Below, piece after piece: positions 15,883 through 18,296 of a stretch of DNA of 64,000 nt. Source of the DNA: Ignavibacteriota bacterium (GTDB taxonomy: Bacteria > Bacteroidota > Ignavibacteria > UBA10030 > UBA6906); contig CAWDEM010000008.1 of the NCBI GenBank assembly GCA_963801355.1, forward strand, positions 640,001 through 704,000. Reading direction: 5' to 3'. The position numbers and the translations under genes were made by a program. Each line of letters begins with the position of its first letter. Within the stretch, counting starts at the first letter, position 1. The notes beneath the pieces were generated by a model. That model saw only the letters and a list, made by a program, of their open reading frames with translations. It was not told the origin of the DNA and searched no databases.

Positions 15883-16161
15883 TTACACCCTGGCGGTGTT
15901 TGGGGCGTTTTGCTGCTCAGGAGCAACCTTGCGCTTGCGATAGAGAATACCCACGGGTATGATCACGCAGTAGCCCAGCACAAGGAGGACCGGAGAAACG
16001 ACGAGAGGAAAGAATCCCTCGATCGAGCCTTCGAGCATCGCGGCATACCCGGCGATGATGCTGAGGAGACCGATTCCGATGATAATGAAGTTCTGTCGGT
16101 CGAGTGGAAGAGCAGTTTCCCGGTTGGGTTTCCGGACTTTATTTTTGATCGGCTTGGCCAC
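15883..16161 (-). CDS. Small two-TM membrane protein (DUF3098-like)
   Basis: LPLDRQNFIIIGIGLL...VSPVLLVLGYCVIIPVGILYR; GGAG upstream of the GTG. Confidence 0.75.
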   Translation of the reverse strand: MAKPIKNKVRKPNRETALPLDRQNFIIIGIGLLSIIAGYAAMLEGSIEGFFPLVVSPVLLVLGYCVIIPVGILYRKRKVAPEQQNAPNTARV

Positions 16162-16195
16162 GGCACGCAACTCCGCTAATGTTTACGAACCCCTT

Positions 16196-16231
16196 AAAAT
16201 AAAAGCCCAGCGTTGGGGGGAACGCCGGGCT
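16196..16231 (-). terminator. Rho-independent terminator
   Basis: 10-11 bp GC-rich stem plus U-tract (UUUUAUUUU) on the minus strand. Confidence 0.8.
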
Positions 16232-16280
16232 CGACCATGTACCGTACAACAGTCAGGGGAGTAACTGTCGTATAGGTCGC
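16196..16280 (-). ncRNA. Candidate ~85-nt small RNA or attenuator leader with two C-rich-loop hairpins
   Basis: Hairpin 1 UACGACAGUUA-[CUCCCC]-UGACUGUUGUA inside CGACC/GGUCG; hairpin 2 GCCCGGCGUU-[CCCCCC]-AACGCUGGGC followed by UUUUAUUUU; upstream promoter; no ORF. Confidence 0.65.
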
Positions 16281-16285
16281 CCATA

Positions 16286-16313
16286 AATATACAAAAAGAA
16301 CCACGATTGTCAA
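16286..16313 (-). promoter_or_regulatory. Sigma70-type promoter
   Basis: Perfect TTGACA-16 bp-TATATT in an AT-rich intergenic island. Confidence 0.7.
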
Positions 16314-16345
16314 TAGCCACAGGGGTGTATTTTGGCTAATATTCT

Positions 16346-17059
16346 TCATGAGGCCGGATTTGGGCCATTTTCTTGAATAACGCCATCCACGATGCGAAGC
16401 ACCCGGTCGGCCAATCTGGCGAGATTCTCGTTATGAGTTACCACGACAAACGTCTGCCCCATTCGCCGGCTGAGGTCTTTAATCAGTTCATGGAGGCGTT
16501 CGGCGTTGGTACTATCCAGATTGCCGGATGGCTCATCCGCAAGGACAACCCTGGGGTTGTTCATGAGCGCTCTGGCGACGGCGACCCGTTGTTGTTCCCC
16601 TCCGGAGAGGTGCGTCGGTTTCTGCTCCGCGCGGTCTTCGACGCCGACCTCGCGCAGGAGGCGGAGTGCCTGCTCCCGGATATCCTGGAACTTCGCGCCG
16701 TTGATAAGGCCCGGCATAGCGACATTTTCCAGAGCGGAAAATTCCGGAAGGAGGTGGTGAAATTGGAACACGAAGCCGGTGGAGCGATTTCTGAAGCGCG
16801 CAAGGTCGTCGTCGTTGAGTGCGAACACATCCACATCGTCATAGTGCACGTTGCCTGATGTCGGCCGGTCGAGTGTGCCCAGGATATGCAGTAGTGTACT
16901 CTTCCCCGCTCCCGAGGCGCCCACGATGGCGATAATTTCGCCCGGTTCAATGCGCAGTGTTATGCCCCGCAACACGCGCAGCTCGCCGCCGTTGGAAGTT
17001 CCGGCCTGGAACGTCTTCGTCACGGCTGTCGCGGTAATGATGCCTGTGGTGGATGTCAT
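16346..17059 (-). CDS. lolD: Lipoprotein-releasing ABC transporter ATPase LolD
   Basis: GASGAGKST, GFVFQFHHLLPEFSALENV, LSGGEQQRVA, LADEPSGNLD. Confidence 0.92.
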   Translation of the reverse strand: MTSTTGIITATAVTKTFQAGTSNGGELRVLRGITLRIEPGEIIAIVGASGAGKSTLLHILGTLDRPTSGNVHYDDVDVFALNDDDLARFRNRSTGFVFQFHHLLPEFSALENVAMPGLINGAKFQDIREQALRLLREVGVEDRAEQKPTHLSGGEQQRVAVARALMNNPRVVLADEPSGNLDSTNAERLHELIKDLSRRMGQTFVVVTHNENLARLADRVLRIVDGVIQENGPNPAS

Positions 17060-17066
17060 GGTATCG

Positions 17067-18296
17067 TTACTCCCACCGGATAGCCTGCACCGGGAGCATA
17101 CTTGCCGCCCTGCGGGCCGGATAGAGTGAAGCAAGGATACTCAACAGCATGGTGGCAACGGACACCGCCACAAAATCGGTCCAGCGCACCTCGACGGGAA
17201 TGGCCGGAATAATATAGACTGTCGGATCGAGCGGGAACAACTGGTAGTGAATCTGGAGATAGCACACCAGGAGGCCGATCCCTGTGCCGAGCAGTGTTCC
17301 GATAGTGCCCACGAGGACGCCCTCGAACATGAACACCCGCATGATGCTTGTCGACGTTGCGCCGAGGGCCTTCAGGATGCCGATATCCCTGCGCTTCTCG
17401 ATGACTCCCATAGTCAATGAGCCGAGCACGTTGAACGTCGCGACGCCCACGATCATGCAGAGGATGATATAGGCGGTCCAGCGCTCCACCTTCATCACGG
17501 AATAGAGATCTCTGTGGAGATCGTACCATGTCGACACACGGTAGTTGTCGCCGAGCTTGCGCTGGAGATCTGCCTTGACGCCGTCGGAGTCGTCGATATT
17601 CCGGAGGCGCATTTCTACACCGGTGACCGCGTTGCCCATGTCGAAGAGTTCGCGTGCCGTAGCGAGCGAGACGTAGGCATAGTGCGAGTCGTAGTCCTTG
17701 TTGTTGGAGTCGTAGATGCCGACGACCGAGCACTCGCGCGTTACCGGTTGGCCGAACTGCACGAGCATTTCATCGACTCCCACGGGGCTGAGGATGGAGA
17801 TGTCCGCGCCGACGGTTGTTCCCAGCCGGTCTGCCAGTCCCAGGCCGAGCACGATGCCCGAGTGTTCCCGGGTGTCGGAGAATGCAAACGTGCCCAACAC
17901 GGTGCTTTGTTTTACCCCCGAGACGCGGTCCACGAGCGAATCCTCAACCCCCTTGACGAGAACCACGCGGTTCATGCGCCCTGCAACGAGCAGTGCTTTG
18001 TTGGCGACGAACGGGGCCGACGCAGCAATCCTCCGGTCCGCGGCGATTGCCTGCATCAGTGTGTCCGTGAGTTCCAGCCGTGCGCCCCGTGCGGGTTCCA
18101 CACGAACGTGCGGGTCGAAGCCTACGAGCACCTTTGTGACCACGCTATTGAATCCGTTGAAGACCGAGAGCACGATGATCAGCGCGGCGACTCCCACCGT
18201 GATGCCGATGACGGAGACGAGCATGATGATATTGATGAAGCGCATCTGGCGCTTGGATCGCACGTACCGGCGCGCTATGAATCGCTCGAAGCCCAT
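17067..18296 (-). CDS. LolC/E-family ABC permease
   Basis: FIARRY, GITVGVAALIIVLSVFNGF, EKRRDIGILKALGA, LYPARRAA. Confidence 0.92.
   Translation of the reverse strand: MGFERFIARRYVRSKRQMRFINIIMLVSVIGITVGVAALIIVLSVFNGFNSVVTKVLVGFDPHVRVEPARGARLELTDTLMQAIAADRRIAASAPFVANKALLVAGRMNRVVLVKGVEDSLVDRVSGVKQSTVLGTFAFSDTREHSGIVLGLGLADRLGTTVGADISILSPVGVDEMLVQFGQPVTRECSVVGIYDSNNKDYDSHYAYVSLATARELFDMGNAVTGVEMRLRNIDDSDGVKADLQRKLGDNYRVSTWYDLHRDLYSVMKVERWTAYIILCMIVGVATFNVLGSLTMGVIEKRRDIGILKALGATSTSIMRVFMFEGVLVGTIGTLLGTGIGLLVCYLQIHYQLFPLDPTVYIIPAIPVEVRWTDFVAVSVATMLLSILASLYPARRAASMLPVQAIRWE

Follow-up and report, generated by a model that had tools for sequence, protein, structure and literature searches.

The 64,000-nt stretch of DNA analysed here, referred to as the window (positions 640,001 to 704,000 of contig CAWDEM010000008.1, assembly GCA_963801355.1, from an Ignavibacteriota bacterium of the class Ignavibacteria), contains on its minus strand a gene for a small RNA (sRNA), situated at 16196..16281, with its own promoter and intrinsic terminator and with two hairpins that each present a C-rich apical loop. 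It is a real conserved RNA gene and not a chance fold, since its retention in different genera, families and orders goes far beyond what chance would give. The gene represents a genuine and apparently undescribed sRNA family that is particular to this lineage and belongs to a known functional kind, that of the C-rich-loop, probably anti-Shine-Dalgarno (anti-SD), RNAs. The reading favoured here, to which about an even chance is given, is that of an Hfq-independent, trans-acting anti-SD sRNA that is also the leader of the transcript of a DUF3098-like gene downstream.

Positions are those of the window and letters are those of the minus strand. The promoter of the sRNA gene consists of the -35 hexamer TTGACA (16308..16313) and, after a 16-nt spacer, the -10 hexamer TATATT (16286..16291), and it matches the consensus at 11 of 12 positions. 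In a promoter search over 2.5 kb, two promoter-like sites were found, against 0.8 +/- 0.8 in shuffled sequences. In the alignment of relatives, the end of the -10 box lies about 7 nt ahead of the first conserved base of the RNA. With a start site inferred from the promoter, the predicted transcript extends from about 16279 to 16196 and is about 84 nt long. Fold and covariation together define three helices in it. The closing stem P1 pairs CGACC (16275..16279) with GGUCG (16232..16236) and encloses hairpin 1 (P2; 16245..16272), which reads UACGACAGUUA-CUCCCC-UGACUGUUGUA and has an 11-bp stem and the apical loop CUCCCC at 16256-16261. The terminator hairpin (16204..16231) reads AGCCCGGCGUU-CCCCCC-AACGCUGGGCU; its apical loop CCCCCC is at 16215-16220, and its G+C-rich stem has 11-12 pairs, of which seven are G-C. 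The U-tract UUUAUUUU of this strong intrinsic terminator occupies 16196..16203.

When folded alone, the minus strand adopts this same architecture at -37.3 kcal/mol (z = -2.82), and 1 of 200 shuffled sequences folded as well. For the plus strand z was -0.51, with 57 of 200 shuffles as good. This asymmetry between the strands fits the G-U pairs present in the stems, which in an alignment of 30 sequences are G14-U36, U21-G30 and G59-U77. Two mechanically called open reading frames (ORFs) overlap the sRNA (16194-16349, 51 aa; 16183-16320, 45 aa), but homologues show indels of 1-2 nt in the linkers together with compensatory changes in the stems, which does not fit coding. No tRNA or tmRNA was found at the locus by ARAGORN. 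A first-pass annotation of this DNA, made from the letters alone, had proposed a minus-strand RNA of about 85 nt with its own promoter and terminator, two hairpins with 6-nt C-rich loops, G-U pairs as the argument for the strand, and no ORF. It is apparent that the promoter is present as it was read, at a position conserved in relatives, that the hairpins reappear both in the minus-strand fold and in relatives, that the fold scores bear out the argument from G-U pairs and that the statement on ORFs was right in substance; the sequence signals for an RNA of this length with its own start and stop thus agree with that proposal.

A BLAST search with a 131-nt query against 40 relatives gave strong matches (E <= 3e-11) in 29 of them. 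The conserved part corresponds to query positions 43-120 approximately, i.e. to the RNA body (about 16278 to about 16201), which is 74-97% identical across the families of the window's order, and the flanks have diverged. When the flanks are aligned as well, the boxes (C)TTGACA and TAnnnT are seen at fixed spacing in nearly all of the aligned relatives. A perfect TTGACA is located 16-18 nt from TAnnnT in 70 of 93 primary loci, and at least five of its six positions are kept in 88 of the 93.

Covariation was assessed in three alignments: A1, with 30 sequences, which is the source of the covariance model R1; A2, with the 26 most diverse members from the class; and A3. In A1, 98.8% of the cells are paired on the proposed structure and five pairs are compensatory. 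Compensatory pairs number 20 of 24 in A2 and 15 of 24 in A3, both of which were fitted to R1, the terminator stem of A3 being further constrained by the search pattern that gathered its sequences. The covariation observed was matched by none of 500 shuffles for each of the three alignments, and controls in which the structure was slid were 22-42% paired. The changes in A2 are spread over both hairpins (9 of 10 pairs compensatory in hairpin 1, 7 of 8 in the terminator hairpin), and all four pairs of P1 are compensatory in A3. Variants of the hairpin 1 stem in A2 include ACGACAG/CUGUUGU, UCAAAGGG/CCCUUUGA, GCAAUGG/CCAUUGC and GCGGUAU/AUGCCGC, and those of P1 include GACC/GGUC, GACU/AGUC, GAGC/GUUC and GGUC/GGCC. 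Single-sequence folds gave the 5' hairpin and the terminator hairpin in 26 of the 26 diverse members, with P1 closed in 24.

The unpaired C-runs of the apical loops are kept more strongly than the stems in both A1 and A2. Loop 1 (UCCCCUG) is invariant in all 30 sequences of A1, as is CCCC-A in loop 2, and at least four C residues are retained by 23 of the 26 diverse members in loop 1 and by 24 in loop 2. The earlier annotation had made its case depend on the conservation of hairpin 1 and of the C-rich loops in relatives; both are conserved, and the stems covary.

A search of the window's genome with R1 found the RNA in single copy (103.5 bits, E 1.2e-25), the next best match having E = 0.34. 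Among 151 sampled genomes of the class, matches were obtained in 45 at E <= 1e-3 and in 30 at E <= 1e-7, most carriers having one. In a phylum-wide sample, 28 of 151 genomes matched, including 3 of approximately 114 outside the class (E 1e-4 to 7e-4). Four weak out-of-class places were inspected and proved to be ordinary terminators, and the weak matches L196, L198-L200 and L202-L206, from outside the class and in some cases from inside it, are likewise plain terminators. A pattern scan of 185,579 species genomes returned at least 117 stretches. The titles among the matches listed were Ignavibacteria, Ignavibacteriales, Ignavibacteriaceae, Ignavibacterium album, 'Bacteroidota' metagenome-assembled genomes and a few strays. 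Of these loci, 100 (L069-L168) were searched with R1, the other 17 (L169-L185) being left out; 87 matched at 54 bits or more (90 matches when tandem copies are included), two matched weakly and 11 did not match. The record of Ignavibacterium album (L148) carries the RNA at 96.3 bits. The 11 loci with neither an R1 nor an Rfam match (L072, L073, L081, L090, L099, L100, L104, L108, L113, L129 and L132; Actinobacteria, Proteobacteria and others) were rejected as members and are taken as chance matches to the pattern; 6C RNA had at first been suspected in the actinobacterial ones. As far as sampled, the family does not extend beyond the class Ignavibacteria, of which only a part carries it, in a patchy distribution.

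This patchiness is also seen upstream of the DUF3098-like gene, where no such RNA was found in the sampled genomes of families f5, f11-f15, f17, f18, f23-f27 and f30 or in one genome of f7. In f5, a promoter (TTGACA-17-TACATT) stands directly before the DUF3098 gene with no RNA between them. At one f8 locus (L316, genome G127), the place of the sRNA ahead of DUF3098 is taken by a long 5' leader of another kind, which contains repeated CUGA(C/U)C motifs, and the gene has a TTGACA promoter. Variants occur at the same site in f22 (L187-L195, L201) and f21 (L067, L068), in which the promoter and the C-loop terminator are kept and hairpin 1 is without a C-run. The retention of the terminator C-loop in these variants marks it as the most persistent element of the family.

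No Rfam 15 family, not even a tRNA, was detected at gathering thresholds in the whole window, and ten diverse member loci gave only tRNAs at that level. A permissive search of 701 nt returned five matches at E <= 10. The best of these, ar14, scored 26.3 bits (E 0.0076) against a gathering threshold of 58.8; anti-hemB reached 20.7 bits of the 49.5 required, and a betaproteobacterial toxic sRNA 13.2 of 50. Both ar14 and anti-hemB are themselves sRNAs with C-rich loops. Neither 6C nor Chlorobi-1 was matched at E <= 10 in the 701 nt or at gathering level in the window, and RsaE gave none in the window or in the permissive search. The comparison with 6C, Chlorobi-1 and the cuckoo RNAs that the first-pass annotation had recommended as a gauge of novelty therefore produced no family hit. 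In the full-text literature searched, which excludes subscription journals and supplements, no regulatory RNA was described for Ignavibacteria.

RsaE/RoxS of the Firmicutes is a conserved sRNA with several C-rich regions, partly single-stranded, that target SD sequences without Hfq. Leader-derived sRNAs, such as terminated riboswitches and the trans-acting trp attenuator RNA, are cases in which one promoter gives rise to both a short RNA and a read-through mRNA; they differ from the RNA described here in that no ligand-binding or antiterminator fold is evident in the latter and in that extra copies of it occur away from such a gene.

Cuckoo RNAs (CcsR, NfeR, alpha-r14; ar14, RF02344) resemble the present family in having adjacent hairpins that share a C-rich, anti-SD-like loop motif, in stems that vary by compensatory changes and in the number of hairpins (two here, two to four in cuckoo RNAs). 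Further likenesses are found in copy number and placement (1-9 copies per genome, clustered, on accessory replicons) and in a conserved neighbourhood, the sRNAs lying in the 5' or 3' untranslated region (UTR) of a gene for a small DUF protein (PMC4615179, PMC8034643). Anti-SD pairing has been proposed for the cuckoo loops (PMC4615179), and the DUF1127 protein CcaF1 is described as binding RNA and maturing the CcsR RNAs (PMC8034643). In contrast to the present loops, (U)CUCCCCU(G) and (U)CCCCCC(AA), every cuckoo loop is reported to carry CCUCCUCCC (PMC4615179). The family described here also belongs to another phylum, its neighbour is a DUF3098 membrane protein rather than DUF1127, and its second hairpin is the terminator.

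The 6C RNA of Actinobacteria is likewise a small RNA with C-rich hairpin loops that is widely conserved in one lineage, and its loops are reported to bind several mRNAs directly and independently of a chaperone (PMC6486639). It differs in sequence and lineage, and its targets have been validated, whereas the role considered here is predicted. The sX13 RNA of Xanthomonas shares stable stems and apical C-rich loops; repression by it is reported to need both its C-motifs and G-rich mRNA motifs near the starts, Hfq being dispensable (PMC3771888). It differs in having three loops with 4C motifs and in being gammaproteobacterial, and no sequence relation is indicated (no Rfam family at threshold).

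The gene that follows the sRNA on the same strand (15883..16161, GTG start) encodes a DUF3098-like small membrane protein of 92 aa (PF11297, 22.2 bits against a cut-off of 25); its N-terminus is basic, and two hydrophobic helices are predicted. Upstream lies a lolD-like ABC-transporter ATPase gene (16346..17059, minus strand; ABC_tran, 2.1e-34), the last of a lolC/E/D-like trio in which it is preceded by two FtsX/MacB_PCD permeases. The co-directional genes downstream are, in order, DUF3098-like, an unknown protein of 208 aa, PGA_cap, YfiO/BamD, a 4HBT thioesterase, DUF6055 and CcmA/B/C/E/F. Of the 119 non-redundant RNA loci that have 330 nt or more of DNA downstream, 98 carry a DUF3098-like gene directly behind the sRNA and on the same strand (93 recognized by an iterated profile and five by tblastn); its start codon lies -3 to 76 nt from the end of the model, with a median of 26 nt. 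The other neighbours vary: lolD upstream and p223 downstream in the window's order, and in another order an 83-aa ORF upstream, with EutN_CcmL and DprA downstream of DUF3098. Linkage to DUF3098 is the only constant across orders. The upstream ORF of that other order is itself conserved, at 82-85 aa, and has no Pfam match (L111:1166-1423, L123:1186-1434, L060:1203-1451). The DUF3098-like gene is found in 148 of the 151 class genomes, almost always in one copy (a second, weak match occurs in one genome), and often stands right after lolD even where the sRNA is absent. In the full-text literature searched, the name DUF3098 appears in a single paper.

In the window the gap between the end of the U-tract (16196) and the GTG start (16161) is 34 nt, and the promoter search found no promoter-like site in it. 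Since there is no promoter and usually no room for one in this gap, DUF3098 would have to be transcribed through the sRNA terminator, and the gene thus probably depends on read-through. In these respects the earlier annotation, which had noted a gap of about 35 nt without a clear promoter ahead of a bamD-ccm operon, described the locus accurately. Two of its further suggestions fared less well. The AAGGGG just downstream, proposed as a pairing partner of a loop, occurs outside the window's genus in only a few other genera; the idea that the loops pair in cis with the ribosome-binding site of DUF3098 was rejected, such pairing being neither conserved nor better than in shuffles (-6.46 against -6.00 kcal/mol for the DUF3098 start regions, p = 0.2). 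A cis attenuator of the classical form is unlikely, because no conserved antiterminator was found in 26 members folded without the 3' arm of the terminator. The 5' domain was unchanged in these truncated folds, and the 5' arm of the terminator was paired at a mean of 0.32, reaching half or more in 7 of the 26 by way of differing local pairings.

The 5'-UTR position is not universal: beside the 98 loci, 21 rows in the data are tandem, orphan or phage-borne copies, a few of them representing the same place twice. Nine copies are present in a closed 5.9-Mb genome, four in each of two genomes and two in another. One record (L133:1493-1897, equal to L207) contains a tandem trio spaced at about 160 nt, of which only the last copy precedes a DUF3098-like gene; a TTGACA promoter stands before each copy whose upstream DNA is known, the first copy lying at the contig end. 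A tandem pair (L162:293-706, equal to L209/L213) is spaced at about 330 nt, one copy having TTGACA and the other the weaker TTGCAA. Orphan copies face convergent genes.

At least five of the nine copies in the 5.9-Mb genome lie inside a repeated prophage-like element (L217:104-2963; also L215, L220, L221 and L222). The order in this element is terminase large subunit, a 105-aa ORF that ends 3 nt before the RNA, the sRNA, convergent small ORFs and an ArdC-like anti-restriction/zincin protein. Among viral contigs, a first pattern gave no match and a looser one gave a single contig, from IMG/VR (L225:1985-2068), with a 63.4-bit copy whose neighbours are portal and terminase genes of the Mu type. 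In the phage copies the -35 box is weaker, and they look derived; no integrase was found beside the copies examined. Phages of Ignavibacteria carry a homologue of the host sRNA.

Contigs from two metatranscriptome studies fall on the element. One, of 79 nt, is identical to the window over 16202-16278 (77 nt), and those from the second study cover 16171-16278 and 16201-16278. The contig ends at 16202 and 16278 fall just where conservation in relatives stops. In three RNA runs the flanks 15900-16169 and 16305-16358 are uncovered, though covered by a DNA run (X1); the uncovered part is no evidence. These contigs are a weak hint of expression.

If these observations are put together under the favoured reading, that of a trans-acting anti-SD sRNA doubling as a leader, a strong sigma-70-type promoter would start transcription at the foot of P1, and the RNA would fold into the 5' hairpin and the terminator hairpin, each presenting its conserved C-run. 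Most transcripts would be expected to stop at the U-tract, giving an RNA of about 80-85 nt. The C-rich loops, as the presumed working parts, would pair without Hfq with G-rich stretches at or near the SD sequences of target mRNAs and, by analogy with 6C, sX13 and the cuckoo/CcsR RNAs, lower their translation. At the ancestral site, to judge from the anatomy, the RNA would also form the 5' leader for DUF3098, a gene that would be expressed when the terminator is read through, and extra copies, including those on Mu-like phage DNA, would act as independent genes. A role of the trans type is suggested because the multiple, tandem, orphan and phage-borne copies look like independent genes, and Hfq independence because Hfq was not found in the window's genome, which is 100% complete. 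That genome encodes two RRM_1 proteins (C4:1476854-1477060 and C8:1546214-1546420) and one CsrA (C8:2762148-2762288); its 16S tail contains the canonical anti-SD CCUCC, and its -8 to -12 regions are G-rich.

Several results weigh against this reading. Loop-mRNA duplex energies were calculated for 3595 crude gene calls, and in this crude, single-genome prediction strong duplexes were no commoner at start regions than inside genes (149 against 200 at or below -14 kcal/mol for loop 1, and 166 against 274 for loop 2). The 12 best predicted targets share no functional theme, and the individual candidates lolD, folE and pdp are either not conserved or explained by the coding sequence of the gene upstream. 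In the window's genus, a 9-nt complement to loop 1, GGGAGUAAC, lies just before the lolD start. At the junction of the second permease with lolD (17060-17085, minus strand), a conserved Trp-Glu-stop, UGGGAGUAA, doubles as the lolD SD region, and in this genus the permease end is a perfect 9-nt complement of loop 1, GUUACUCCC. The lolD candidate was rejected, the complement being the permease Trp-Glu-stop coding end and showing no covariation with an A/U variant of the loop. That of folE is again the coding end of the upstream gene, and that of pdp (pyrimidine-nucleoside phosphorylase) is not conserved. The loss of the loop 1 C-run in f21 and f22 indicates that loop 1 is dispensable in some lineages. 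The metatranscriptome contigs break where relatives diverge, and RNA libraries may hold DNA, which leaves the support from expression weak. The tight linkage to DUF3098 (98 of 119, median gap 26 nt) would also fit a purely cis role, and the f5 promoter of the same type, which drives DUF3098 directly, suggests that the promoter may primarily belong to DUF3098.

A purely cis leader, which would set the expression of the DUF3098-led operon by premature termination, perhaps with a factor binding the C-loops, and of which the short RNA would be a by-product, is an alternative to be taken seriously, if a rather unlikely one. It would account for a co-directional DUF3098 gene directly downstream across orders in which the other neighbours differ, and for a gap that is short and without a promoter-like site. 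It fits less well with the lack of a conserved antiterminator among the 26 members, and attenuation needs no conserved loop sequence on a terminator hairpin. The tandem, orphan and phage-borne copies have no DUF3098 behind them, apart from the last of the trio; the start regions of DUF3098 show no particular complementarity to the loops; and the sRNA is missing upstream of DUF3098 in the sampled genomes of 14 other families and one of f7. It may instead be supposed that the C-loops dock a protein, either one of the RRM/KH type or the basic N-terminus of DUF3098, the RNA titrating this protein or being matured by it. Similar short C-motifs on two apical loops with covarying stems are consistent with such a role, as are the presence of two RRM_1 proteins and no Hfq in the genome, the conservation of a gene for a small basic protein beside the RNA, and the precedent of CcaF1 with the CcsR RNAs (PMC8034643). 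Against it, base pairing is the mode of action reported for the C-rich loops of every characterized analogue (PMC6486639, PMC3771888), the DUF3098-like protein is predicted to be embedded in the membrane, and its gene occurs in 148 of 151 class genomes with or without the RNA; this explanation is considered decidedly improbable.

The nine copies in the 5.9-Mb genome, at least five of them in the repeated terminase/ArdC element, and the copy on a Mu-like viral contig might also suggest a repeated or mobile DNA element, i.e. a phage module or attachment site, and not a cellular regulator. The window's genome has a single copy, however, and most carriers in the class have one match; the RNA occupies one syntenic site with a conserved promoter and shows strand-specific RNA covariation that includes G-U pairs; and there is no integrase beside the copies examined, while the phage copies look derived, with weaker -35 boxes. 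A mobile element is thus given very little credence. Still less probable, to a negligible degree, is that the feature does no more than terminate the lolCDE-like operon and that the hairpin ahead of the terminator arose by chance. The element does have lolD 44-246 nt upstream of it on the same strand, but lolD is separated from the hairpins by a conserved promoter, relatives retain hairpin 1 and both loops, with covariation, and the RNA is also found without lolD upstream, so that this explanation is already refuted by the conservation data. A bolder extension of the favoured anti-SD reading is that the RNA and DUF3098 constitute one module, the counterpart in a Bacteroidota lineage of CcsR-CcaF1, in which a single promoter would yield a C-loop riboregulator and, when the terminator is read through, also a partner protein linked to the envelope genes lolCDE/BamD, and that Mu-like phages of Ignavibacteria captured copies of the sRNA to reprogramme this regulon when they infect the host. 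This proposal is speculative and judged improbable.

The Ignavibacteria are environmentally widespread relatives of the Chlorobia and Bacteroidia. The RNA described here provides this little-studied class with its first candidate for a family of regulatory RNAs, and it offers an entry point to post-transcriptional control in a lineage without Hfq. Were its function local attenuation only, the finding would be of modest interest. As an anti-SD RNA it would be an independent example of the design in which C-rich loops are set against G-rich ribosome-binding sites, a design that apparently arose several times over, with cases in Actinobacteria, Alpha- and Gammaproteobacteria and Firmicutes. The fixed leader position before a gene that is near-universal in the class ties the sRNA to a testable gene, the copies on Mu-like phage DNA provide natural variants for comparison, and the covariance model R1 can be submitted as a new RNA family.

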